Source of the DNA: Pyrinomonadaceae bacterium
Lineage (GTDB): Bacteria; Acidobacteriota; Blastocatellia; Pyrinomonadales; Pyrinomonadaceae
Direction: 5' to 3'
Length of the DNA: 64,000 nt
NCBI GenBank assembly: GCA_036387135.1
Contig: DASVUH010000007.1
Coordinates: 2,105-66,104, forward strand
The position numbers and the translations under genes are program-made. Numbering within the stretch: position 1 is the first letter of the stretch; each line of letters opens with the position of its first letter. Below are positions 1,272 through 23,174 of the stretch, piece by piece. The notes under the pieces were generated by a model, which was not told where the DNA came from, searched no databases, and worked only from the letters and a program-made list of their open reading frames with translations.

Positions 1272-1461
1272 ATTGTTTTAACGCATTTGACTGCGATGTC
1301 AAGCCGGGAAGCGCCAAATTTTCAGAACCCGTCCATAAAAGGCTCAAAGCATCAAATTAAACCGAGTTTTTTGAATTGTTTCGAGACGAAACTCAGATAA
1401 GTCCGGCTTCTCAAAAGCAGACAGTGTGAATGAGTGATAGATACATTTTTAGATACAGATA

Positions 1462-1535
1462 CGAAAAAAGCAAAGACGGCTTTTATTCCGCGTTAAATTC
1501 GGCAAAATTAAGCCGACGCGATAAAAGCCGTCTTT
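1462..1535 (-). terminator. Candidate hairpin terminator downstream of the TPR gene (inverted repeat 1473-1486 / 1522-1535 followed by a U-run on the minus strand).
   Basis: aaagacggctttta and taaaagccgtcttt are perfect inverted repeats. A-run 1464-1470 gives a U-run on the minus-strand RNA. The loop is long (~35 nt), so this is uncertain. Confidence 0.3.
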
Positions 1536-1560
1536 ACGTAAAACAGACTGAATTCAATGT

Positions 1561-2538
1561 TTATTGAATTGTCATTTTCGACGCATCGAGAATGTAGCCT
1601 CCGTATATTTGTTTTCTAAGTTGTTCGGAAAGCTCGGCATCCAGTTTCTTGAGAATACTAAAATGCTTTAGAGCTTCATCGCGGTTATTCATCGCCAGAA
1701 AACTGACGGCAAGATTATATTGCGCGTAACTCCAATCTGGACGGAGTCTGGCTGACTCTAAATAACTTTTGTGCGCCTGCTTTTTCTTGCCTAACTTGGT
1801 TAGCACGACTCCGAGATTGCTGTGAGCATCGGCAAATGCAGGCTTCAGTTCAATGGCGCGCCTCAAGCTCTCATTAGCTTCCTGATAGCGCCCGACCGCG
1901 ATCAGTGTAACTCCCTTATCGTTAAGAATCTCAGCCGAATCGGGCTGCAGCTTAATCGCAGCATTGAATGCTTCAAGCGATTGCTCGTAATTTTTGATTT
2001 GGTACAGCGACATTCCTAATTGTCTGAGCACGGAAGGATTGTGCGGCTCAAACTGCGCGGAGCGGCGAAAAGCCGCGACGCTTTCTTCGTAACGACCAGC
2101 CTCGTAAAGCGTGTTGCCTAGTCCGGCGTAAGCATTAGCAGAATCAGGCTTATTTTCGATTATATGGTTGAATTCCTGCACGGCGTCATCATAACGACCT
2201 GCGTAATTAAGAGCCATTGCCAGGTTGAAATTAATCTGAGCCGATTTTGGAGCTATTGAGACAGCTTTTTGGAACATCTCGATGGCTTCGCTGTAATGTT
2301 TTTCGAGAGCTAATTCGACGCCCCGGTTATTAAAGTCAAGGGCTTTAACCCCGCCGATTGACGAAGCGCCTCCGGTTTCGGGAGGAAGCCAGTTAAATTG
2401 GTTTTCCGAATTGATATTCGGATTTCGCTTATTTTCTTCATACGAGTGAAGGGACGAAGGATTTCGCTTGTTTTCTTCTTGCGCGTAAGCGGTTGAAACG
2501 AGTGTGACGATAAATAGAACGAGCAGGATTGTTTTCAT
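1561..2538 (-). CDS. Secreted tetratricopeptide (TPR) repeat protein
   Basis: Signal peptide MKTILLVLFIVTLVSTAYAQ. Multiple TPR-like 34-aa units are present (AxxYxxLGxxY..G.Y..A pattern). Confidence 0.7.
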   Translation of the reverse strand: MKTILLVLFIVTLVSTAYAQEENKRNPSSLHSYEENKRNPNINSENQFNWLPPETGGASSIGGVKALDFNNRGVELALEKHYSEAIEMFQKAVSIAPKSAQINFNLAMALNYAGRYDDAVQEFNHIIENKPDSANAYAGLGNTLYEAGRYEESVAAFRRSAQFEPHNPSVLRQLGMSLYQIKNYEQSLEAFNAAIKLQPDSAEILNDKGVTLIAVGRYQEANESLRRAIELKPAFADAHSNLGVVLTKLGKKKQAHKSYLESARLRPDWSYAQYNLAVSFLAMNNRDEALKHFSILKKLDAELSEQLRKQIYGGYILDASKMTIQ

Positions 2539-3748: not shown

Positions 3749-5188
3749 TCAGGATTCTTTTTTGATTAAATTTAAAGCGGTTTCCAAAATCGCGTCTCTG
3801 CCGCTCACATAATCGGCAACTCGTCTCGTTACCGGCAAATCCGGCACGACTCCTCTGGCGTCTTTACAACCGGCGGGCGGCATCCAGTTTCTGACGGAAA
3901 GAGATGCCCGCAGTCTGGAATGCGGCAGATTAAAAAAGTAAATTTCGCCGAAATTGCAGACAGGCGCTTTGGTTTCTTCGCCGACAATCTTTGCAAGCCC
4001 GTTATCTTTTATCACTGCCAAAAACATTTGAGCGCTGGAAAATGTTTCCTTTGAACCGAGAACAAACACCTTCCCGTCGAATCGAAGCGGATTATCGCCG
4101 GGATTGACTGTCGGCGGCTGAGTCGAAATAAATTCGCCCGGACGCAGCGCCATATAATTATCCGGCACGGGTAAATTTTTGCTCTTGAGAAATTCGACAT
4201 ACTGATTGCTGCGTTTCCACTTCATCGAATAATGTTTGTACGGCTTTGCGTTGAACATATTAATCAGCGCGTCTCCGAGCGCCGAATTGCCGCCCCGGTT
4301 ATTTCTGACATCAATAATCAAAGTCTTCGCTTCGGCTGATTTAATCTGTGTAAACGCATCCTTCAGAATTGATTTATATTTTTCCAAATCGTAATCAAAA
4401 GTTGTCGAGTTAAGATAAGCCACACCATTTCCGAGCAGCTTCAGTTCAAGCGGAGATTCGTTTGTTTGCGGCGTCGGGGAATTTGCCGCCCTCAAAGCAT
4501 TTTCTCTTTGAATTATTTCCGGCAAATAAATGCCTTTTACCCGGACATTTTTGCCGTCCGAGAAAGAAACCGCAAATTCATCCGGTCGCCCGAAAACTTC
4601 GGCAGCGCCGACCCAGAGCCAGAGCGCGGCGCTTTCGACTCTTTCCCGTTCGATACCGAAAAGATGCTCGCTGAGCTTTTGGATAATCTCGTCGCTCTTA
4701 AAACCGTTTATGCTCGTAATAACGGCTCCCTTTTCAATCTTTTCATCGGCAAACGACTTTTCAACCACAATTTTGCCGTCAACATAAACCGTGCGAATCG
4801 GAAAATATTTCGTCGCATCTTTTTCCGCTTTAATAAAAAAGCGCGGTTCAACCACATAACTATGAGAATCCTGAACGGCGCTGACGAGCGGCGTAAAAAG
4901 CAGCCAGAATTCCTTCTGAGTCATCGCTCCGCGCTCGCGGATGCGAGATTTTATCTGGTTTGCGCGCGCCTGAAACTCTTTGGCTGAAATATGAGCGTAA
5001 GGATTAACGTGCGCCTCTTCCAGATTTTTGATGTAGAAATCCACATCTTCAATTAGCTGTTCGGGGGTAAACCGCTGATTACCATCAAAAACTGTCTGAC
5101 CAAACGCTGAGCAGGTAAATAAAATGATTAAGAATAAAAGGGTCTTGGTTTGGATGACCTGAAAGGTTAATTGTGTCCAAATCCGCAT
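3749..5188 (-). CDS. S41 family peptidase (C-terminal processing / tail-specific protease-like), secreted
   Basis: S41 signature IIDVRNNRGGNS..GDALI and a downstream GSKETFSSAQMF segment. N-terminal signal peptide. Confidence 0.8.
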   Translation of the reverse strand: MRIWTQLTFQVIQTKTLLFLIILFTCSAFGQTVFDGNQRFTPEQLIEDVDFYIKNLEEAHVNPYAHISAKEFQARANQIKSRIRERGAMTQKEFWLLFTPLVSAVQDSHSYVVEPRFFIKAEKDATKYFPIRTVYVDGKIVVEKSFADEKIEKGAVITSINGFKSDEIIQKLSEHLFGIERERVESAALWLWVGAAEVFGRPDEFAVSFSDGKNVRVKGIYLPEIIQRENALRAANSPTPQTNESPLELKLLGNGVAYLNSTTFDYDLEKYKSILKDAFTQIKSAEAKTLIIDVRNNRGGNSALGDALINMFNAKPYKHYSMKWKRSNQYVEFLKSKNLPVPDNYMALRPGEFISTQPPTVNPGDNPLRFDGKVFVLGSKETFSSAQMFLAVIKDNGLAKIVGEETKAPVCNFGEIYFFNLPHSRLRASLSVRNWMPPAGCKDARGVVPDLPVTRRVADYVSGRDAILETALNLIKKES

Positions 5189-5302
5189 TTAAGTTAAAGC
5201 TCCTCTTTTTCTAATGTACGATTCGAGATTCTGTTTATTTAACGGGTTATTTAACGGAAGATTTCGCAAACACTTTACGGCAAAACTCAAACAAAAGTTT
5301 AA

Positions 5303-5800
5303 TCAATTGACTTCATTAACGCGAGAAAAAGAGAAGCCGCCGCGTAAATCCAAATCCAAAGCCTGTTCCTGACCCAAAATCGGCATACCTTTGAAATGCT
5401 GCTTATAGCCGACGGCGCGAAAGCCGATGTCGCCCTGATTTGTTTTAATAATCCATTTCCATTCGGTTTTACGATTTATCAATTCCGAATTTTTAGATTT
5501 TCGATGCGCGCTGCGTTCGATATTTATAATTTCTATTTCCTGATTCGGCTCAAGCTCAATTCTAAGGTCGCTGACGTTTTCAAAAACAAGCGTCGCGGCT
5601 GCGACCAAAAACCTTTGCGAATTCGCATTTTCAGGTTGATAAATTCGTTGAAGAATATAATCAATATCGAGCAGAAATTCCGTTCGTTTGGGCAGAAACG
5701 CAAATGCATAAACTCTCGATTCGCGCCAATTCATTTGTTCAAAATCGCTTTCCGTCCAAACAAATTTTTGCAGATTTAAAATTTCACTCATTTTCGTCAA
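5303..5800 (-). CDS. Hypothetical protein, translationally coupled to recX
   Basis: 165-aa ORF overlapping recX by 17 nt on the same strand. No recognisable motif. Confidence 0.45.
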   Translation of the reverse strand: MTKMSEILNLQKFVWTESDFEQMNWRESRVYAFAFLPKRTEFLLDIDYILQRIYQPENANSQRFLVAAATLVFENVSDLRIELEPNQEIEIINIERSAHRKSKNSELINRKTEWKWIIKTNQGDIGFRAVGYKQHFKGMPILGQEQALDLDLRGGFSFSRVNEVN

Positions 5801-6332
5801 AATCCTCGCGTGCGATTTCGCGCATTTTATCGCTGATCAGCCCATAAGAAAAGCCTTGACGCATCAGATAATCGTAAAACTTTTTCGTCTCGTCGCGGTT
5901 CTCAGGCAAGCCTTTTAAGCGAATGCGTTTTTTGATCGCTTCTTCGACCAAATCCGCTTCGGGCGTTTCTTCGTAAACTTGTTCGAGCGCGTGTTCAACA
6001 GTTTCTTTATCGAGCTGCTTTTGCTGAAGAGATTGCTGGAGTTTACGTTTTCCGACCGGCTTTTGCCGGAGCTTTGAAGCGGCGAAATCGTGCGCGAATT
6101 GTTCGTCGTTGACGAATTTATATTCTTCTAATTTTTGCAAAACCGTTTCGACGATTTCGGCGTTCGTCCAGTTTTTTTCCAAAAGTCTTTCTCTTAATTC
6201 GCCGACAGAACGCGGTTTGGCGGCGAGAAGCCGGACGGCGCGCTCCATTGTTCGCTTGCGCGCTTTTTCCACGTCTTTGATTTCAACCGGCTCGTCGGAT
6301 TCGGTTTTCGGACTCCACTTCTTTCTAAACAT
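5784..6332 (-). CDS. recX: Recombination regulator RecX
   Basis: ~180 aa with three helical repeat modules typical of RecX (RAVRLLAAKPRSVGELRERL.., ..YKFVNDEQFAHDFA.., DYLMRQGFSY). Confidence 0.7.
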   Translation of the reverse strand: MFRKKWSPKTESDEPVEIKDVEKARKRTMERAVRLLAAKPRSVGELRERLLEKNWTNAEIVETVLQKLEEYKFVNDEQFAHDFAASKLRQKPVGKRKLQQSLQQKQLDKETVEHALEQVYEETPEADLVEEAIKKRIRLKGLPENRDETKKFYDYLMRQGFSYGLISDKMREIAREDFDENE

Positions 6333-12003: not shown

Positions 12004-14496
12004 TTATAGCAGATTTACCGGGTCAATTTCCAGATTAACCGCGCGTAAATCGCAATTTTTTTCTTCGGCTTCCGCCCAAGCCAAATCCAGAGTCTCGCGC
12101 AGCGCGCGGCGATTTTTCGCTTTTACCAAAATCTGCATCCGAAATTCGTTTTTAAGGCGCGCAAGCGGCGCGGGCGCAACGCCTAAAATGCGACAAGCGT
12201 TTTCCCGATTCGCATTTTCCAGACAAGCGCGCAAAATCTCGCCGGTTTCGAGCGCGTGAACATAATCCGGGTGATGAATCAGCAAAGACGCGAGCGCGGA
12301 AAACGGCGGATAACCGAGTTTTTGGCGAAAAGCACGCTCGGTCTTGTAAAAAGCCGCGTAATCCTGCGCGCAGGCGTGTTTTAAAGCGTAATGCTCCGGG
12401 TAAAAAGTCTGAATCAAAACTCTCCCGGCGCGCTCGCCGCGACCTGCTCGCCCGGCAACTTGCGTGATGAGCTGAAACGTGCGCTCGGCGGCGCGAAAAT
12501 CCGGCAATCCAAGACCTGCGTCAACCGAAACCACGCCGACGAGCGTCACATTCGGAAAATCGTGACCTTTGGCGAGCATCTGCGTCCCGACGAGCATATC
12601 AATTTTGCCTTCAGCGAAATCGTGCAGAGTGTCTTCCAGCAGATGTTTTTTGACGGTCGTGTCGCGGTCAACGCGCGCGATTCGCAAATCGGAAAATTTG
12701 CGGCGCAGACGGTCTTCGATTTGTTCCGTGCCTTCGCCCAGGAAATTAATATATTTGCTTTGACAAGCCGGACAAACGCGCGGCGTCTTTTGGCGAAAAT
12801 TGCAGTAATGACAAACCAGCGCGTTTTCTTTGCGGTGAAACGTAAGCGTCACGTCGCAATTCGGACAGCGCACGGTTTCGCCGCACGCGCGACACAAAAC
12901 AAATTGCGAATAGCCGCGCCGATTGAGCAAAACAATTGATTGCTCGCCGCGCTCGTGCGTTTCTTCGATTGCGGCGAGCAGCAGGGGCGATAGCGTTTCA
13001 TCTTTGCCCGTCGCTTTAAAAACCTCGCGCATATCTACGATTTCCGCTTCAGCCATCGGACGATTGCCAATTCGCGCGGGCAGCGTGAGGCGGCGATATT
13101 TTTCGCGTTCGGCGTTATAAAACGATTCGAGCGCCGGAGTTGCCGAACCCAAAATCACGACCGCCTTTGCAAAATTGGCGCGGACGACCGCAACATCTCG
13201 GGCGTGATAAAACGGCGATTCCTGCTGGCGATAAGAACCGTCGTGTTCTTCGTCAACAACGACGACGCCCAGATTTTCAAGCGGCGCGAAAACCGCCGAG
13301 CGCGTCCCGATAACGACTCGCGCCTCGCCCGCTTTGATTCTGCGCCATTCGTCGAAACGCTCGCCGACCGAAAGCGACGAATGCAAAATCGCCACCGCTT
13401 CGCCGAAAATCACGCGCAAGCGGCGCGAAAAAACCGGCGTCAAAGCGATTTCCGGGACGAGCATCAACGAGGTTTTTCCTTGCTGCAAGGCAAACTGCAT
13501 CGCGCGAATATAAATTTCGGTTTTGCCGCTGCCCGTGACGCCGTGCAGCAGAAACGCTCGATACTCATTTTCCGAAGCGGCGTGAATAATTTCCGACAAA
13601 ACTGCGGATTGTTCCGCAGTCAAAACCAAATCGTTTTTCCTGGGCAATTTGGCGTGCGCGAGCGGATCGCGGCGAACTTCGCGGACGAAGGTTTCGACGA
13701 CGCCGCGTTTTTCGAGCGTGTTGATTGCCGAAGCCGAAACTTCGGCGGCTTCGAGCAATTCAGCGAAACCGAATTCGCCTTCATTTTCAAGTAAAAACTC
13801 GATTACTCGATTTTGCCCTTCGGTTAGTTTTTTAGCGGCGTTGCCGTTTTCACTGTGGTTTTCGGGTGGAAGCAGCCGCACGGCTTTGCGGCGTTTTGGT
13901 TTCGCCTGTGTCGTCAAAACGCGGTGAAAAGATTTAATCCAATTTTTCGCTTCGAGTTCGCGGATGTTTCTTTTCGCCGCCGTTTCGCCAAAACTTTTTC
14001 CCAGCTCGCGCAGCGAAACTTCACCTTTTTCGGCAACAAGGCGCAAAATCTGAGCTTTTGCAGTTTTTAATTGTTTTTCCGAGAGCCGCAAAATCTCGTC
14101 TTTGCCAAACGGCGTCGGCTGGCAGATTTGCTCAATCGTCGCGTTGACTCCGGCGGGCAGCGCGGCTTTGATGATTTCGCCCCACGAACAACTGTAATAA
14201 TCGGCAATCCACGCCGTTAATTTTAAAATCTCCGGCGTCACAAGCGGTTCGGCGTCAACCAATTCGAGCGCGTCCTTGATTTCCGTTTCGTCAATTTCAA
14301 TTCCGCCATCCAATTCAGCGTGCAGCGCGACCGCGTAAGCCGTAATTTGTTTGTTGCGAAACGGTACGATCAAGCGCGCTCCGGCGTGCGTTCGCCCGCG
14401 CAGATTTTCCGGCAAACGATACGTAAAAGTCCGCCGCACCGGAAAAGGCACGGCGACTTCGGCATAAATCGGGCGATTGATGATTGATTCGGACAT
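12004..14496 (-). CDS. priA: Primosomal protein N-prime (replication restart helicase PriA)
   Basis: 830 aa. Walker A GVTGSGKTE and DEAD-like VVVVDEEHD. Cys-rich zinc-binding insert CRACGETVRCPNCDVTLTFH..CHYCNF..CPACQS typical of PriA. Confidence 0.9.
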   Translation of the reverse strand: MSESIINRPIYAEVAVPFPVRRTFTYRLPENLRGRTHAGARLIVPFRNKQITAYAVALHAELDGGIEIDETEIKDALELVDAEPLVTPEILKLTAWIADYYSCSWGEIIKAALPAGVNATIEQICQPTPFGKDEILRLSEKQLKTAKAQILRLVAEKGEVSLRELGKSFGETAAKRNIRELEAKNWIKSFHRVLTTQAKPKRRKAVRLLPPENHSENGNAAKKLTEGQNRVIEFLLENEGEFGFAELLEAAEVSASAINTLEKRGVVETFVREVRRDPLAHAKLPRKNDLVLTAEQSAVLSEIIHAASENEYRAFLLHGVTGSGKTEIYIRAMQFALQQGKTSLMLVPEIALTPVFSRRLRVIFGEAVAILHSSLSVGERFDEWRRIKAGEARVVIGTRSAVFAPLENLGVVVVDEEHDGSYRQQESPFYHARDVAVVRANFAKAVVILGSATPALESFYNAEREKYRRLTLPARIGNRPMAEAEIVDMREVFKATGKDETLSPLLLAAIEETHERGEQSIVLLNRRGYSQFVLCRACGETVRCPNCDVTLTFHRKENALVCHYCNFRQKTPRVCPACQSKYINFLGEGTEQIEDRLRRKFSDLRIARVDRDTTVKKHLLEDTLHDFAEGKIDMLVGTQMLAKGHDFPNVTLVGVVSVDAGLGLPDFRAAERTFQLITQVAGRAGRGERAGRVLIQTFYPEHYALKHACAQDYAAFYKTERAFRQKLGYPPFSALASLLIHHPDYVHALETGEILRACLENANRENACRILGVAPAPLARLKNEFRMQILVKAKNRRALRETLDLAWAEAEEKNCDLRAVNLEIDPVNLL

Positions 14497-14640
14497 CGGC
14501 GGCGCGAAAAAACAAGATTAGCCCAAGCTGACAAACTCGGCAAGCCGCAGCCGGATTTGAAGTTTGCCGAAATGAATTGCTGAATTTTTGAAGGAGAAGT
14601 AAAGATTACTAGGATTTATGGTACAATTAAAGGAACGGAC

Positions 14641-14662
14641 AAAAAACGGCTTTCATGAAGCC
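14641..14662 (-). terminator. Hairpin plus U-run terminator immediately 3-prime of the tRNA-like fragment (minus strand)
   Basis: ggctttcatgaagcc palindrome at 14648-14662. A6 at 14641-14646 gives U6 on the minus strand. Confidence 0.4.
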
Positions 14663-14683
14663 ATTTAAATCGTTGATTAGATT

Positions 14684-14712
14684 GGTGGAGCAGAGGAATC
14701 GAACCTCTGAGC
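14684..14712 (-). other. tRNA-like 3-prime fragment (T-arm, acceptor 3-prime strand and encoded CCA) with no complete cloverleaf. Possible relic integration site or degenerate tRNA.
   Basis: Minus-strand reading CUCAGAGGUUCGAUUCCUCUGCUCCACCA. The T-stem AGAGG/CCUCU flanks a UUCGAUU loop. The 3-prime end matches tRNA-Ala/tmRNA-type GCUCCACCA. A D-arm, anticodon arm and complementary 5-prime acceptor strand could not be fitted. Confidence 0.35.
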
Positions 14713-14907
14713 ATCCCATTGTAAATGAGCGAACAGCGTCTTAGTTTCACCGCCAAACACCGTCACCGCTCGTCATTCCCGGCGATTCTTGGCGGTAATG
14801 GGTCGAACAAACCTGCAAACCACGACAAATGAGCAGCGGCGTAAAGGACGCATTATGTTCTCGCCGCTTCAATACCGAAAGTTACAACTTTCAACAAGAG
14901 TTTAAGT

Positions 14908-15900
14908 ATGACAAAGAAAAACATTCTTTCTGGGTTCCTAGCAATTCTGTGCTTCTTGGCGAGCAATGTGCTTGCCAACGCACAAGAAAAAACTTTAGCC
15001 GCTCAAGCTGCGATTGAAGAAGTCGCAGTTTTCCAGAAATACACGAAAACACTCGCCCTGCCAGAGCGTGACCGGCGCGCGGCGTTTTCTTAAAGCGACG
15101 CGCGAGACAAAGCCGCACTCTGGCGTTTGAATCTTGCCTTATCGCTGGTAGACCGCCAAGATTTGACACTACCGCAGCAAATGGTCGTTGCCGACACAAT
15201 CGCCGCGATCACGCCCGAATCATATAGCAATCCAGACCGTGAAAGCGTCCAGAGAAAAGCAAACGCCAAAATCGAGGCAGCCGCCGCATCCGGCTTTACA
15301 AAGCGGCAAATGGGTGAGATATTTGCAACACTCGCCGCGACGCCGACCAGCTTGCGGACGCTAGAGAATTATCTAGACATCACGCAACTTGTCTGCCCGG
15401 ATAATAAAACTCTCTACCGGACTTTGAGTCTCGACGAAAAAAGCGCACTCTGGCGTTTCCAAGCTGCGCTGTTTCTGGCGACAACGGATTCGCTATCTTC
15501 CGAGCAACGTTCGGCGGTTCTCGAATGGCTCAACTTGATTAGTCCAGAATTGCTCGATAGAGCAGTCAGCGACACGGAATTAGCGAGAAAAGGCAACTTA
15601 ATTAAGGCTGCTGCGTCACGACTTGGTGAGGTTTTCACGCCAGAACAAACGGCGAACATCTCGCTTAAGCTCGGTTTGGTTGCTAATCCAAGAGGAGGTA
15701 GCGCGCGGGCGAATCAGAGAGTAAAAATGATCAAGGCATCCGGCAAAGTAGACTTAAGGGAATGCTCCTGTTCAACTAACAGCGATTGGTGTGCTGTGTG
15801 GGTGTCGCAGCAGTATTGCCATAGCGGTAACTGTACTGGGCTGCCGGACGGCTGTGGCAATCTCGGTTTTTATAGTTGCAACGGTAGTTGCAGTTACTGA
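14908..15900 (+). pseudogene. Secreted protein gene interrupted by an in-frame TAA at 15091-15093. N-terminal signal peptide, two internal ~50-aa repeats (..ALWR[LF]..AL.LA..D..) and a C-terminal Cys-rich module (10 Cys in 47 aa).
   Basis: ORFs 14908..15093 and 15127..15900 share one reading frame. Codons immediately after the stop (SDARDKAALWRLNLALSLVD) are homologous to an internal repeat (LDEKSALWRFQAALFLATTD), so the stop lies inside coding sequence. Confidence 0.45.
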
Positions 15901-15912
15901 CGAAAGGTTGGT

Positions 15913-16341
15913 TTGGTTATGTACTTAACAAGGAAAGAGAATCGAGAACTTGATTTTTGGATAGAACAGCCGAAAGGTTTGCCGTTCGCCGCTTGTCTGG
16001 CGGGCGGCGTTGCGGGCGGTTTGCTCATTCTGGTTACTGTCCTGTCAACTTTTGGGGGCTTGATGCTCTTTCCTTTTGTTTTTCTCGCGGGTGGTCTCTT
16101 TTGGCTAATGCGGGGAACGCGAATCGGTTATTTTCGCCGATTTTTGACAGGGGTGGCGGCTTTTATGCTGGCTGGAATGATTCTTTATTTTTATCTTCTC
16201 ATCTTTATCAGTCAACTCGGCTTCCAGACGCCGTTGTCGACACACGTCTGGCGAATTGGAATGATGCTCGGAATTGGCATTATCTTCAACGGCGTGATAG
16301 CGCTCGTCCAAGCCGCTTACGAAACTCGCCTTAGGAGATAG
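15913..16341 (+). CDS. Small integral membrane protein with 4 predicted TM helices, function unknown
   Basis: Four long hydrophobic stretches in 142 aa. Starts 13 nt after the Cys-rich protein gene. Confidence 0.5.
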   Translation: MVMYLTRKENRELDFWIEQPKGLPFAACLAGGVAGGLLILVTVLSTFGGLMLFPFVFLAGGLFWLMRGTRIGYFRRFLTGVAAFMLAGMILYFYLLIFISQLGFQTPLSTHVWRIGMMLGIGIIFNGVIALVQAAYETRLRR

Positions 16342-16637
16342 CGGCGGCGTTATCTTTTTCGCTTTTCTTCCTCGAATTTCCGAATAATCTCTTTCATCTG
16401 CGCCGGAGTTGCCGACGAGTTCGGGCTAAATATGTATAATCTATGGCGGTGCGGCGAAGTTGGAGCTATATCCGGCGTAGAAACAGTTTTGTAGTATTCA
16501 CATTCCAAATCTTTAATTGGAACAGGTTCAACCATATATTCGATATAATCGCGTAGGATTATCGTATCTTGCTCATATTCATCAGTAATAACCGCTTACC
16601 GCAAGCTGTTCGCGTAAATTGCCGAGTTTTCCCACCT

Positions 16638-17234
16638 CTAGGATTTTGATTCGGCGAGCGCGTCGCGTACCCGTTTCATATCTTCCCAAACCTCGCGTTT
16701 TTTCGTCGGATCGCGGAGCAAATAAGCCGGATTAAAAGTCGGCATTATTCGAGCAAAACCGCCGTAATCGTGAAACTCGCCGCGCATCTGCGAAATCGTT
16801 TTTTTCGTCTTCAAAAGAGCTTTGGTCGGAGTCGCGCCGAACGAGATAATTATTTTCGGGCGAACAACGGCGAGTTCTCGATGCAGATACGGAATAAAAA
16901 AGTTTAAGATGTCAGGCGTCAACTCGTCTCCGGCGGAAATATATTTGACGGTATTTGTCAGATAACAATCTTCGCGTTTGAGTCCAATCGAATTCAAAAT
17001 TTTAACCAGCATTTCGCCCGCCGGTCCCATAAACGGACGCCCGCTCGCCGCATCCGGCGCGCCCGGCGATTCGCCGACAACCGCCACGCGCAAACCCGCC
17101 GCGCCTTCGCCGAAAATAAACATTCGACTCTGCAATGCCGGAATCGCTTTAGCCTTTTCGAGCAATTCCTGATTCACTTCGTCAAGCGTTTCGGTCGGCT
17201 GCGTTTCTTCATCTGCAAACAAAAAATTTTGCAT
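16638..17234 (-). CDS. Uracil-DNA glycosylase family 4-like paralog lacking the Fe-S cysteine ligands and with Asn replacing the motif-B His
   Basis: Aligns to the neighbouring canonical UDG4 gene: GESPGAPDAASGRPFMGPAGEML versus GEAPGANEDAEGRPFVGRAGQLL, and FNPAYLLRDP versus FHPAYLLRDP. None of the four Cys residues is conserved. Confidence 0.7.
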   Translation of the reverse strand: MQNFLFADEETQPTETLDEVNQELLEKAKAIPALQSRMFIFGEGAAGLRVAVVGESPGAPDAASGRPFMGPAGEMLVKILNSIGLKREDCYLTNTVKYISAGDELTPDILNFFIPYLHRELAVVRPKIIISFGATPTKALLKTKKTISQMRGEFHDYGGFARIMPTFNPAYLLRDPTKKREVWEDMKRVRDALAESKS

Positions 17235-17244
17235 AACAAAAATT

Positions 17245-17344
17245 TGAACCGCTGAGACGCAGAGACGCCGAGTTTAAGAAAAAGAGTTTGAGACAAAAGA
17301 ATAAAAAATCTTTTCCCGGCGTCTCTGCGTCTCGGCGGTGAAAA
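17245..17344. repeat. MITE-like intergenic repeat, copy A. 17-bp terminal inverted repeats gagacgcagagacgccg / cggcgtctctgcgtctc with an A-rich core, ending ctcggcggtgaaaat.
   Basis: Perfect inverted repeats at 17254-17270 and 17318-17334. The 5-prime flank (ttgaaccgcYgagacgca) and 3-prime end (gcgtctcggcggtgaaaat) are shared with copy B at 28744..28866. Confidence 0.75.
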
Positions 17345-18370
17345 TCACTTTTGCGTCCGAGCAAGTTCGTCGCGCACTTTTTTCATATCTTCCCACGTTT
17401 CCCGCTTTTTCGACGGGTCGCGCAAAAGATAAGCCGGGTGAAAAGTCGGCATCACTTTAATGCCGTAATAATCCTGAAATTTACCGCGAATTTTGGTGAT
17501 TCCTTCTTTCGTGTCAAGCAGATTCTGCGTCGCCGTGTTGCCCATTACAACGATGATTTCGGGGCGCGCGATGGAGATTTCGCGCATTAAAAATTGGCGG
17601 CAGGTTCTGGCTTCCTGAATCGTCGGCGTGCGGTTTTGCGGTGGGCGGCACCGGTTGACGTTGCCGATTAAAACTTCCTCGCGTTTTAAACCGATGGCTT
17701 CGATGATTTTGGTCAAAAGCTGTCCGGCGCGCCCGACAAAGGGGCGTCCCTCGGCGTCTTCGTTCGCGCCCGGCGCTTCGCCGACAAAAAGAATGCGCCC
17801 TGTCCAATTGCCTTCCGTGTGGACGATTTTCGTTCTGCCCTGATAAAGCGGGCAGCGCACGCAATCGCCGATGTCGGCGCGGATTTCCTCGACAGTTTCG
17901 TTCGATTCCGGGAGCGTTGCGGATTCCGGCGTCAGATCGCCAAAAAGTGAACCTTCCATTTTTGTTTCCTCTGATTTTTTTGCAAAATTCTGCGGCGGCG
18001 CGACGTTTATTGGCTCTGCAATTTTTTTTAGAATTTCCGGCGCACTTGATTCTTCCTCGCGCGCTGCAACCGACGGCGAGATTTTCGACAATTTTGTCGC
18101 TTCCAATTTATCGCGGAAAGAATTTAAACGAGGCAGCGGCTTTGTTTGGGGCGCAGCAACAGGTTTCGGCGGCGCGGTTTTGTTCACGGGCGGCACATAA
18201 GCCTGAAAAGCGGGCGGCGCGGCTCTTAAAGTCTGAGGCTGTGTTTCTTCCGTTTTTTCCGCGACAAAATCGGTTTCCAATCCTGCAACGCCCAATTCTT
18301 GCGCAAACGCTAAATGCTCGCGCACGTCCGCAAGCAATTCCAAAAAATCTTCGCGCAAACTTTCAGCCAT
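17345..18370 (-). CDS. Uracil-DNA glycosylase family 4 (4Fe-4S type) with a ~170-aa Pro/Ala-rich low-complexity N-terminal extension
   Basis: C-terminal domain carries CVRCPLY, GEAPGANEDAEGRPFVGRAGQLL, NRCRPP..ARTCRQ (four Cys) and FHPAYLLR. Confidence 0.85.
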   Translation of the reverse strand: MAESLREDFLELLADVREHLAFAQELGVAGLETDFVAEKTEETQPQTLRAAPPAFQAYVPPVNKTAPPKPVAAPQTKPLPRLNSFRDKLEATKLSKISPSVAAREEESSAPEILKKIAEPINVAPPQNFAKKSEETKMEGSLFGDLTPESATLPESNETVEEIRADIGDCVRCPLYQGRTKIVHTEGNWTGRILFVGEAPGANEDAEGRPFVGRAGQLLTKIIEAIGLKREEVLIGNVNRCRPPQNRTPTIQEARTCRQFLMREISIARPEIIVVMGNTATQNLLDTKEGITKIRGKFQDYYGIKVMPTFHPAYLLRDPSKKRETWEDMKKVRDELARTQK

Positions 18371-21039: not shown

Positions 21040-21386
21040 ATCAACCGTCGCTTTTCGATGTTCCGACTAAAACCGTTGACGCGGCGCGTCTCGTACTTTA
21101 TGCGCTGGGCGAATTTCAAGCGCGCCGGAAAGTTTTAGCCGAAAGAGAATTGCCGCTCGACCGTCTTCGCGGAGCTTTTCGCCGCGCGGCTGAACATTTT
21201 GAAACGGAAGAATTGCCGGACGAGCAAATTGCCCAAGAGTTGGCAAATCTCGGAGCAAAAATTCAGCGTTTGCCGTCATTCAGAGCCAAACATCCGTTTC
21301 ACGTAACGGTACAAACTGAATTAGCGCAGCGCGCTTTTGAGTTTTATCAACAAGCTGTTTCTCAAAATGCGGAGGCAAAGCAATGA
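21036..21386 (+). CDS. Hypothetical protein (116 aa), translationally coupled on both sides by ATGA overlaps
   Basis: ATGA overlap with the Uma2 stop and with the downstream start. No recognisable domain. Confidence 0.45.
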   Translation: MNQPSLFDVPTKTVDAARLVLYALGEFQARRKVLAERELPLDRLRGAFRRAAEHFETEELPDEQIAQELANLGAKIQRLPSFRAKHPFHVTVQTELAQRAFEFYQQAVSQNAEAKQ

Positions 21387-22243
21387 AAATCACAAAAATC
21401 ACAATTAGCGTTTTCTTTTTAGCATTCTTAATCGGTTATATTTCTGTTCCGCAGACAAAACAAGTTTCTGCGCCAATCGCAATTGTCGATATAACTACTC
21501 AATATTTGCCTTTAGCCAAGAATGAAACGAAGTTTGAGCCTGAAATTTTCGACATTATTGATGTTTGGGAAAATGAGGATAAGTTTAAAATCAAACTGGT
21601 TGACGTCGCCGAACACAATAATACCTTCAGAAAAGACGAAGTTATTGCAAAATCCGGTGAGTCCTGGTTAGGGCTTTTTAAAGAAAACGATCAATATGTT
21701 TTGCGCCACACAACAGTCAAAATAAAGCAAGAACGAAAATTAAGTTATGAAAAAGAAAGCTATGTGCGAATAAAGTTCGGTAATAAATCAGAGCCTGTTT
21801 TTCTGTTAAAAAATGCGAAGAAATTAAAAGAGGGCGAAGTCAAGACATTATATCGTCACCCATCGCAGGAAGAAAGAGAGCAATTTGAGATTGAACCGCC
21901 TTCACTAAAGCAAGGATTTATTCGGCAATTTCAACTGGGGGATAAAAAATACACGTTACGTGTCAAAGAAGGTCTGACTAAATCGAACGAAAAAAGTTTG
22001 GCTTTGATTTTGGAAACTGAAAATACAAGCCAGGTTATTCACGTCGTTTACGGAGAACCGGGCAACGTAGTCGGAGATTTGCTTTGGGTTGGAGATTTGG
22101 ATCGCGACGGAAAACTCGATTTGTATATGGATTTTTATAATTATGAAAAAGGCAGTTTCGGTTCAGGTCTTTTTCTTTCATCAGAAGCAAAAAAAAGACA
22201 AATAGTAAAACAAGCAGCTTATTTCGGAACGGCTGGCTGCTAA
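21383..22243 (+). CDS. Hypothetical membrane-anchored or secreted protein, markedly low GC (~37%), with one DxDxDGxxD Ca-binding-like loop
   Basis: N-terminal hydrophobic anchor ITISVFFLAFLIGYISV. DLDRDGKLDL motif near the C-terminus. AT-rich codon usage differs from flanking genes. Confidence 0.5.
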   Translation: MKITKITISVFFLAFLIGYISVPQTKQVSAPIAIVDITTQYLPLAKNETKFEPEIFDIIDVWENEDKFKIKLVDVAEHNNTFRKDEVIAKSGESWLGLFKENDQYVLRHTTVKIKQERKLSYEKESYVRIKFGNKSEPVFLLKNAKKLKEGEVKTLYRHPSQEEREQFEIEPPSLKQGFIRQFQLGDKKYTLRVKEGLTKSNEKSLALILETENTSQVIHVVYGEPGNVVGDLLWVGDLDRDGKLDLYMDFYNYEKGSFGSGLFLSSEAKKRQIVKQAAYFGTAGC

Positions 22244-22271
22244 AATAAAAAACAAATGAACAAGGGGTTTT

Positions 22272-23174
22272 ATGAACAAATATGTCGATTTATGGCGTTA
22301 TGTCGGACGAGTCAAACCGGAAATAGAAACATCTTTGCGCGAAAATCTGCCGCTCGCGCCCGCCGCGCTCGGAACGGATTTTAACGATGCTCTCGTTTAC
22401 GCGATGTTTCCCGGCGGCAAACGTCTGCGTCCGGTTTTAACTCTTCTGGCTGCCGAATTGGTCGGCGGCGAGCGTGAAAAGATTTTGCCAGCCGCTGCCG
22501 CGGTCGAATTTGTTCACACCAGCTCTTTGATTTTCGACGATTTGCCGTGTATGGACGATGCCGACGAACGGCGCGGCAAATCTTGTCTGCACCGGAAATT
22601 CGGCGAAGGAAACGCTGTTTTAGTCGCGCTCGCTTTGCTCAATGCTTCGTATAATCTGGTTTTCGCCGGAATGAAAAACGATTGTACGATGTGCGCGACG
22701 GCGGCAATCAAAGCGCATCGAGAATTAACCGAATGCATCGGGGCGGCGGGAATGGTCGGCGGGCAATCAATTGATTTGGCAGCCGCTAAGTCAGACGCTG
22801 TTGCGCCGGAAAAATTTGAATCGCTCAGAAATTTGAAAACGTCGGCGTTGATGCGTATGGCGCTGAGTTTGGGCGCGATTCTTTCAGGCGCAAACGAAAA
22901 TCAGTTAAACGCGCTCTCGCGTTTCGCAGAATTGCTCGGCGACGCTTATCAAACGAGCGACGATTTGCTCGATTTGCAGGAAGATTTACACATTTCGCAA
23001 ATTACCGAACGACGCGCGGGCTTAGCTCTCACACAAGGCGCAATGAGAGCGCAAATCAGAGTCGGAAATTTAATCTCAACGGCGAAAGACGTTTTGTTGA
23101 CCGAGTTCGACAGGCGCGAGCCGGCGAATATGCTGTGCGAGATGGCTGATTATGTCGCCGAGCGACGCGTTTGA
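22272..23174 (+). CDS. Polyprenyl synthetase family protein (GGPP synthase CrtE-like)
   Basis: FARM with bacterial GGPPS-type insertion FDDLPCMDDADERRG and a second Asp-rich motif YQTSDDLLD. Confidence 0.8.
   Translation: MNKYVDLWRYVGRVKPEIETSLRENLPLAPAALGTDFNDALVYAMFPGGKRLRPVLTLLAAELVGGEREKILPAAAAVEFVHTSSLIFDDLPCMDDADERRGKSCLHRKFGEGNAVLVALALLNASYNLVFAGMKNDCTMCATAAIKAHRELTECIGAAGMVGGQSIDLAAAKSDAVAPEKFESLRNLKTSALMRMALSLGAILSGANENQLNALSRFAELLGDAYQTSDDLLDLQEDLHISQITERRAGLALTQGAMRAQIRVGNLISTAKDVLLTEFDRREPANMLCEMADYVAERRV

Follow-up and report, generated by a model that had tools for sequence, protein, structure and literature searches.

In the 64,000-nt stretch of Pyrinomonadaceae DNA analyzed here (called the window throughout), an open reading frame that begins like a secreted protein stops after 61 codons, the same frame goes on into a Cys-rich protein, and a gene for a small membrane protein follows on the same strand. 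The locus raises the question of what the interrupted gene (gene 1) encoded, whether its product is still made, and which role the membrane protein plays beside it. We favor, with a probability of about 0.65, a two-gene unit that consists of a fulvocin-type precursor gene broken by a nonsense change and an intact partner gene for a protein with four transmembrane (TM) helices, a candidate immunity protein. The coordinates of the features are compiled in Table 1.

Table 1. Features of the two-gene unit, in positions of the window.
Feature	Position	Strand	Evidence and remarks
N-terminal fragment ORF, 61 codons + TAA	14908..15093	+	Translation; Sec-type signal peptide and start of helical repeat 1 (FQKY...LPERDRRAAFS)
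Signal peptide, Sec-type	~14908-14982	+	n-, h- and AXA-type c-regions read from sequence; cleavage predicted after ANA
Helical pro-domain repeat 1, ~aa 41-151, TAA inside	15028..15360	+	Internal repeat, NF033852 stretches, alignment A1, AlphaFold pLDDT 84-95; boundaries approximate
In-frame TAA, codon 62, interrupting gene 1	15091..15093	+	Sequence; same codon in ENA, JGI and Logan assemblies
Rest of gene 1, 268 codons + TGA	15094..15900	+	Remainder of repeat 1, repeat 2, linker, Cys module
Helical pro-domain repeat 2, ~aa 152-262	15361..15693	+	NF033852, internal repeat, A1, AlphaFold; boundaries approximate
C-terminal 45-aa module, 8 Cys (CSCSTNSDWC...GCG...CNGSCSY)	15763..15897	+	Covers end of NF033852 profile; counterpart of mature fulvocin C
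140-aa membrane protein, candidate partner/immunity gene	15919..16341	+	HEX8564170.1, annotated hypothetical; alternative TTG 15913 = 142 aa
Terminator-like hairpin + T-run, end of two-gene unit	16333..16368	+	Consensus scan only

The reconstructed precursor and its family

Positions 14908-15903 were translated in one frame, which yielded 61 codons, the TAA, 268 codons and a TGA at 15898-15900. The continuous product (called the read-through protein) starts with MTKKNILSGFLAILCFLASNVLANA followed by QE: an MTKK stretch, a hydrophobic core and ANA in front of the Q are typical of a Sec signal peptide. The motif DKAALWRLNLALSLV located after the stop repeats EKSALWRFQAALFLA. Local alignment of residues 26-165 with residues 166-285 gave a score of 83, compared to 30.7 +/- 5.8 (maximum 57) for 300 shuffles. 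The first repeat copy begins before the stop (VFQKYTKTLALPERDRRAAFS, stop, SDARDKAALWRL...) and the second runs from LENYLDITQLV...LSLDEKSALWRF; therefore, the TAA sits within a repeat unit. An AlphaFold model of the read-through protein, based on the homologue alignment, had a pLDDT of 79.8 and a pTM of 0.81. Both repeats were all-helical with a pLDDT of ~89-91 across the stop position, and the Cys module was small and less certain. Among solved structures, nothing resembled this model beyond generic helical bundles.

The eight Cys of the C-terminal module are found at positions 286, 288, 295, 304, 309, 316, 324 and 328, and seven of them are invariant across 24 sequences together with G317, the glycine of GCG. 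An earlier reading of the DNA, performed on the sequence alone, had counted 10 Cys in 47 aa; the module holds 8 Cys in 45 aa (CSCSTNSDWC...SCSY), and 10 is the number for the whole read-through protein, i.e. Cys 15 and 163 plus the eight of the module. The same reading knew no family for this module. However, the read-through protein matched the NCBIfam profile NF033852 ("bacteriocin fulvocin C-related protein") with 112.4 bits and E=3.2e-32, well above the curated cutoff of 35: positions 2-150 of the 150-position profile cover residues 167-329, and repeat 1 gives a second, partial match. Pfam contained no model for the read-through protein. NCBI already names the 257-aa fragment HEX8564169.1 a bacteriocin fulvocin C-related protein, as a normal CDS, in agreement with the profile match. 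Judged by profile and alignment, gene 1 is a clear member of NF033852. The proposal that the Cys-rich end is a bacteriocin-type module was thus supported, and the profile search suggested for it led to a known family.

Fulvocins are bacteriocins of Myxococcus fulvus, and mature fulvocin C has 45 residues and four disulfides. What we take to be its 45-aa sequence can be aligned with the Cys module of gene 1 from end to end; this served as a lead only, the test being the profile match. Gene 1 shares with fulvocin C and NF033852 the ~45-aa 8-Cys module (CxCS..SD.C....C....C.....GCG......CNG.C), a helical pro-region and an N-terminal signal peptide. It differs in that the pro-domain is duplicated (the 150-position profile is matched twice), a stop codon interrupts the gene and the host is an acidobacterium (Pyrinomonadaceae). 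Streptomyces plasmid genes annotated as fulvocin C-related were matched by tblastn and show the same C-terminal pattern (ANCTCSTQSQYC...GCG...CNGTCY).

With the part after the stop as query, an exhaustive HMMER search of 1.84 billion representative proteins returned 325 homologues (E<=1e-3). The best of these mostly measure 310-350 aa, dozens of proteins of this length are uninterrupted, and in most of them residues 3-5 after the stop align at residues 65-74. We aligned the read-through product with 23 full-length homologues (alignment A1). The common architecture starts with a signal peptide and the motifs LQxY...LP..ER...F and DK..L(W/F).(H)LA...Q..ILE; these motifs then recur once, and a variable linker leads to the 8-Cys module. 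The upstream ORF is collinear with the N-termini of the homologues and contains the invariant Tyr45 of the LQxY motif. A profile built without the window gene matched the 61-aa ORF at its positions 1-66 (20.6 bits, E of about 1e-8 in a one-sequence search) and the part after the stop at its positions 70-329 (207 bits), indicating that the two pieces are collinear. Three claims of the sequence-only reading stand on these data: translation confirmed that the two ORFs share one frame with a single TAA between them, the stop does lie inside coding sequence, namely within the first of two homologous helical repeats, and the collinear homologues together with the profile match show that both ORFs once formed one secreted protein. 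Signal peptide and Cys module occur on one polypeptide only in the reconstructed read-through protein; in the window the TAA separates them.

Gene 1 belongs to a two-repeat acidobacterial subgroup of the family (e.g. proteins P0002, P0003 and P0010; loci L004-L029) of the same architecture, with 310-350 aa and 24-33% identity. It has the motifs LQxY, ER..F, DK..LW/F.HLA, Q..ILE and the 8-Cys end in common with the window gene. In contrast to the window gene, these relatives are uninterrupted, and most are followed by a multi-TM thioredoxin-like fusion instead of a 4-TM protein. We found neither the duplicated pro-domain subgroup nor its partner genes described in the literature mentioning fulvocin. 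The duplicated pro-domain and the partner genes are variations on a known kind and not a new kind of system.

The TAA in codon 62

The locus is present in assemblies of ENA (ERZ27253093, contig k141_50364), JGI (3300034030) and Logan (SRR10954969) with 0 mismatches over 3.4-8.4 kb, and the TAA is found in all of them. The Logan contig crosses the site unbroken. This agreement rules out an assembler artefact as the origin of the TAA; since all four assemblies may stem from one read set, it leaves room for a minority allele. An intact near-identical allele was absent from the 90%-identity cluster and from a word-based search of 5.8 billion proteins. The sequence-only reading had itself named a sequence error as an alternative, and the presence of the same base in the ENA, JGI and Logan assemblies speaks against it. 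If the TAA were a sequencing or consensus error or a polymorphism, the intact 330-aa secreted precursor would actually be made. The source of the NCBI sequence, a third-party (TPA) metagenome-assembled genome (MAG), would fit such an explanation, as would the remaining ORF, which is flawless and keeps the family-invariant residues. In addition, the TAA falls into an alignment column of A1 that holds K, E, D, N, A or S in the homologues and is therefore one base away from AAA or GAA, whose residues are common there. Given the same base in the four assemblies, the unbroken contig and the missing intact allele, we consider an error or polymorphism improbable.

Two further explanations of the stop were rejected. 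Reassignment of stop codons is incompatible with the ordinary use of TAA in the window, where it is the commonest stop and ends 26 of the 40 long ORFs, and TAG occurs normally at the C-termini of the same genes in another MAG (see below). Two short proteins, P0004 and P0024, suggested that homologues are recurrently split at this site; they turned out to be a contig-edge truncation and a mis-called start.

The first in-frame starts past the TAA are TTG 15127, used by NCBI (HEX8564169.1) and JGI to yield 257 aa, and ATG 15181, used by ENA and Logan to yield 239 aa. Neither product has a signal peptide, and no Shine-Dalgarno-like purine run was read from the sequence in front of either codon. 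Gene 1 may nevertheless be alive if one of these products had a cytoplasmic role, e.g. as chaperone or neutralizer of the Cys module. Such an ORF is predicted by four gene callers and undamaged, and free-standing pro-domain proteins (117-128 aa) with a match to NF033852 and no signal peptide are located downstream of intact genes in loci L007, L008 and L009. However, these natural paralogues are devoid of any Cys module, whereas in the window product the 8-Cys module would remain reduced in the cytoplasm. Furthermore, the TAA lies inside repeat 1 and the product would begin with a truncated domain. Together with the absence of a Shine-Dalgarno-like sequence, this makes a cytoplasmic function unlikely.

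Besides the TAA, gene 1 carries no lesion: all eight Cys and all family-invariant residues are kept. Counting against a pseudogene are the 268 undamaged codons after the stop, which are compatible with continued use as well as with a recent inactivation, and the annotation of the 257-aa fragment at NCBI as a normal CDS. Weighing these data, gene 1, once the gene of a secreted bacteriocin precursor, has probably become a pseudogene by a recent nonsense change.

Stops within family genes were also observed in the MAG "Acidobacteria bacterium 5-1" (MWZA01; metagenome assembly MWVY01). It contains two paralogous family genes (loci L010 and L011) with one in-frame TAG each. In both genes the TAG takes the place of the invariant Gln in the Q(K/R)..ILE (QKxxILE) motif, that of repeat 2 in one gene and that of repeat 1 in the other. 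Since TAG is a normal stop in that MAG, the two TAGs are CAG-to-TAG nonsense changes. Taken together with the window gene, the three single-stop, frameshift-free inactivations hint at selection against production; with two MAGs as their only source, they are too few to argue from.

The three family genes with exactly one in-frame stop and no frameshift (window gene, L010 and L011) in two MAGs could also be taken as a hint of programmed read-through or bypass at a low rate, by which the production of a dangerous peptide would be throttled. UAA is the least leaky bacterial stop, and no recoding signal was seen. In the contigs concerned, TAA and TAG also terminate genes in the ordinary way, even these very genes at their normal ends. 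Nonsense codons arise most commonly by a change from CAG to TAG, and three cases, two of them from one MAG, are few. We therefore regard read-through as very improbable and retain the nonsense pseudogene as the preferred reading of gene 1.

The downstream membrane protein and the partners of related genes

The gene following gene 1 on the same strand starts 12 nt (TTG 15913) or 18 nt (ATG 15919) after the TGA. A 142-aa protein with four TM helices had been placed 13 nt downstream by the sequence-only reading. The position just downstream holds and the distance does not; the 140-aa form starting at ATG 15919, which was called by NCBI, JGI, ENA and Logan, is the most likely product. Four TM helices were supported by hydropathy and by AlphaFold helices of low confidence (21-43, 50-64, 69-99 and 106-139). 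An amphipathic helix at the N-terminus is followed by the four hydrophobic ones, and positive residues are found after TM2 and TM4. Its single-sequence AlphaFold model (pLDDT 65.7, pTM 0.36) was too weak for a fold search. Searches against Pfam and NCBIfam gave no match at E<=1 to 5, thus no described immunity family; the best hit among PDB sequences had E=0.37. In the word-based search of 5.8 billion proteins, the protein was its own sole hit.

Both genes have the same orientation and are followed by one hairpin, from which we infer co-transcription. In the window the pair is flanked by priA upstream and by two genes for family-4 uracil-DNA glycosylases downstream. A candidate tRNA or tmRNA gene upstream of gene 1, where GGTTCGATTCCTCTGCTCCACCA (14683-14705, minus strand) resembles the 3' end of such an RNA, was rejected, as ARAGORN with default settings and Rfam (gathering threshold and E<=1) were negative for this region and for the window. 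Only relaxed ARAGORN reported a 66-nt 'tRNA-Val' at the site, of which only the T-arm folds (fold z-score 0.07), and the element is treated as a tRNA-derived remnant. NtrC-type activator genes beside family genes in three other loci (L005, L012 and L025/26) prompted a search for sigma-54 promoters. There was no match on the plus strand of 14497-14907, and the counts over the whole window were at chance.

GTDB species genomes were subjected to a pattern scan with close relatives of gene 1, which revealed five loci. One of them (L013; contig DASVTY010000003.1 of the Pyrinomonadaceae MAG SMAG_U3303) contains a homologous pair. There, an intact 337-aa precursor (P0003, 27-28% identical to the window gene) is followed after 105 nt by a 143-aa protein at 4620-5051, which shares 41% identity over 125 residues with the 4-TM protein of the window (E=2e-35) and is its sole homologue detected. 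No further homologues of the 4-TM protein were found in plasmids or in the metagenome pattern scan. The flanking genes at L013 (FabI-like and LOG-like upstream, CutA and YqeY-like downstream) differ from those of the window, indicating that the pair is kept together in two contexts. The search for homologous pairs in other genomes, as suggested by the sequence-only reading, thus yielded one, within the Pyrinomonadaceae, and the 4-TM protein was absent from the other ~18 loci examined.

To see what accompanies the relatives of gene 1, ~20 distinct two-repeat loci were compared for their downstream partner. A membrane protein is located directly downstream in 13 of these ~20 loci, and three mutually unrelated kinds can be distinguished. 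The commonest, found at nine loci (L004, L005, L006, two in L011, L014, L018, L020, and L021, which is convergent), is a TM-thioredoxin fusion of 250-290 aa with a 4-5-TM N-terminal domain and a ResA/StoA/TlpA-like domain carrying CGVC or CGLC. The 4-TM protein occurs at two loci (window and L013), and so does a 2-3-TM protein of 64-88 aa (L025/26 and L029; 49% mutual identity, E=1.6e-12). A pro-domain copy that matches NF033852 and lacks signal peptide and Cys follows at two loci (L007/8/16 and L009), and nothing comparable is found downstream at five (L010/L015, L012, L023, L027 and L028). Homology of the 4-TM protein to the TM domain of the thioredoxin fusions or to the 2-3-TM partners was rejected, as BLASTP and hhalign were negative; hhalign gave a probability of 0.6% for the 4-TM protein versus the TM domain of the thioredoxin fusions. 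Moreover, the 4-TM protein ends after TM4, and no thioredoxin-like ORF follows its gene in the window.

The TM-thioredoxin fusion looks like a disulfide-maturation factor. Being the commonest partner, it counts against immunity as the role of the 4-TM protein: with a membrane-anchored, thiol-disulfide oxidoreductase-like protein as its dominant occupant, the downstream slot often serves maturation. It is quite possible that the 4-TM protein instead helps to mature, export or anchor the secreted protein, or that it has no relation to it and happens to share the operon; the small size of its family, with two known members, points in the same direction. As regards oxidation, four TM helices beside the gene of a disulfide-rich secreted protein are reminiscent of DsbB- and VKOR-type oxidases. 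These are defined by conserved Cys pairs, whereas the 4-TM protein has a single Cys (C26 in the 140-aa form), which is replaced by Leu or Ile in the L013 homologue, and an oxidase of this type was rejected. Nor does the 4-TM protein resemble the TM domain of the thioredoxin fusions, and its gene is intact though the toxin-like gene is broken, a state in which a maturation factor is not needed.

Immunity is favored by the pairing with an intact toxin-like gene in L013 and by the membrane proteins of three kinds that follow most family members. With the small multi-pass membrane proteins that confer immunity to peptide bacteriocins, among them those of class II, the 4-TM protein shares the small size, the four TM helices, the position directly downstream on the same strand and the retention of the gene when the toxin gene is broken. 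It differs from them in that it resembles no Pfam or NCBIfam family by sequence or profile and in co-occurring with the toxin-like family in one further genome only (2 of ~20 loci in total). As the 4-TM protein has no redox capability and was kept though gene 1 is broken, self-protection would be its most likely role, which we assign tentatively on the basis of its position, its shape and one conserved pairing.

A possible path from secreted precursor to immune non-producer

The preferred reading can be summarized as a sequence of putative events. Gene 1 would formerly have encoded a Sec-secreted precursor of ~330 aa composed of the signal peptide, two helical pro-domains of ~110 aa each and the 45-aa 8-Cys module. 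By analogy with fulvocin C, the disulfide-knotted module would have been cleaved from the precursor, after oxidation in an extracytoplasmic compartment, to yield the active antibacterial peptide. A single nonsense change at codon 62 would then have split the signal peptide from the remainder, and, with the signal peptide cut off from the body, the product of gene 1 would no longer be exportable. The 4-TM protein may provide self-protection against a putatively membrane-directed peptide, and the present state could be described as that of an 'immune non-producer'.

A bolder version holds that the two 4-TM proteins (15919-16341 in the window and 4620-5051 in L013) found a new family of fulvocin-type immunity proteins, that the window represents an immune non-producer, and that there is recurrent selection against production in soil Acidobacteriota. 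In this combination we consider it doubtful.

Few bacteriocins have been studied as little as the fulvocin-type peptides. To our knowledge, only one of them was characterized (1977-81), and we know of no activity for any family member except fulvocin C itself. The three kinds of partner genes are concrete candidates for the maturation and immunity functions of these peptides. If our reading is true, a toxin gene was silenced by a single nonsense change while the protective gene was kept, and the window, with its broken copy and intact partner, would constitute a natural 'toxin off, partner on' case.

Sequences flanking the two-gene unit

The 410-nt gap that separates priA from the interrupted bacteriocin-like gene of the window contains a perfect tRNA/tmRNA-like T-arm and acceptor 3' end (GGTTCGATTCCTCTGCTCCACCA). 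No tRNA or tmRNA gene was reported by ARAGORN at default settings or by Rfam, either at this site or across the 64-kb window, and a 66-nt 'tRNA-Val(tac)' was called here only under relaxed ARAGORN settings. A former tRNA gene or an integration site may have left this sequence behind; an origin of this kind would agree with the two-gene unit (the bacteriocin-like gene and the downstream 4-TM protein gene) being an insertion.

Further downstream is a tandem pair of family-4 uracil-DNA glycosylase paralogues; about 150 aa rich in Pro, Ala and Glu extend the N-terminus of the second. The long, near-perfect hairpin between them (stem about 25 bp, -55 kcal/mol, z = -8.8) probably serves as a terminator or represents a repeat element; its matches to plant and animal miRNAs in the E-value mode of Rfam were spurious. 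Positions 21200-22400 have a G+C content of 0.38-0.40 versus about 0.50 elsewhere and may be foreign DNA.

In-frame TAG codons in two paralogues

One acidobacterial MAG carries two fulvocin-type paralogues (loci L010 and L011) with one in-frame TAG apiece, in both cases precisely where the Q(K/R)xxILE motif has its invariant Gln. Apart from the TAG both genes are undamaged, and elsewhere in these contigs TAG is an ordinary stop. The same TAG-bearing genes are also present in the metagenome assembly MWVY01 (L015 and L017).

Neighbours of the family genes

Immediately 3' of intact family genes are genes for proteins of 117-128 aa without signal peptide or Cys, which match the pro-domain part of NF033852 (the NCBIfam model for fulvocin C-related bacteriocins); one possibility is that they are cytoplasmic binders or neutralisers of the fulvocin-type precursor. 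A third kind of small membrane protein (2-3 TM, 64-88 aa), unrelated to the 4-TM protein and to the thioredoxin fusions described below, is encoded 3' of two other family genes, with 49% identity between the L025/L026 and L029 proteins.

Three family genes have an NtrC-type activator gene (Response_reg, Sigma54_activat and HTH_8) directly upstream, a hint that in some lineages their control depends on sigma-54. A search for a sigma-54-like promoter upstream of the window gene found none.

The commonest neighbour of the two-repeat fulvocin-type genes (signal peptide, two helical pro-domain copies, 8-Cys module) encodes a TM-thioredoxin fusion of about 250-290 aa, in which a 4-5-TM N-terminal domain without family match precedes a ResA/TlpA-like thioredoxin domain (CGVC/CGLC). 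This fusion is a candidate dedicated disulfide-maturation factor.

Features in the window and at loci with other family genes (L numbers, own coordinates)
Feature	Location	Strand	Remark
priA	window 12004-14496	-	far side of gap
tRNA/tmRNA-like sequence	window 14683-14749	-	in gap
Uracil-DNA glycosylase, first	window 16638-17234	-	
Hairpin	window 17250-17341		
Uracil-DNA glycosylase, second	window 17345-18370	-	
Predicted secreted protein	window 21383-22243		286 aa; in low-G+C stretch
In-frame TAG	L010:4113-4115		MWZA01000153.1
In-frame TAG	L011:2255-2257		MWZA01000027.1
Pro-domain protein	L007:1358-1744		
Pro-domain protein	L008:1365-1718		
Pro-domain protein	L009:1436-1798		
2-3-TM protein	L025:3697-3891		
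2-3-TM protein	L026:3697-3891		
2-3-TM protein	L029: about 1340-1606		
NtrC-type sigma-54 activator	L005:2505-3857	-	
NtrC-type sigma-54 activator	L012:1971-3317	-	
NtrC-type sigma-54 activator	L025:898-2310	+	
TM-thioredoxin fusion	L004:2339-3097		
TM-thioredoxin fusion	L005:5084-5647		
TM-thioredoxin fusion	L006:3117-3983		
TM-thioredoxin fusion	L011:2990-3853 and 5108-5980		two copies
TM-thioredoxin fusion	L014:4580-5437		
TM-thioredoxin fusion	L018, L020, L021
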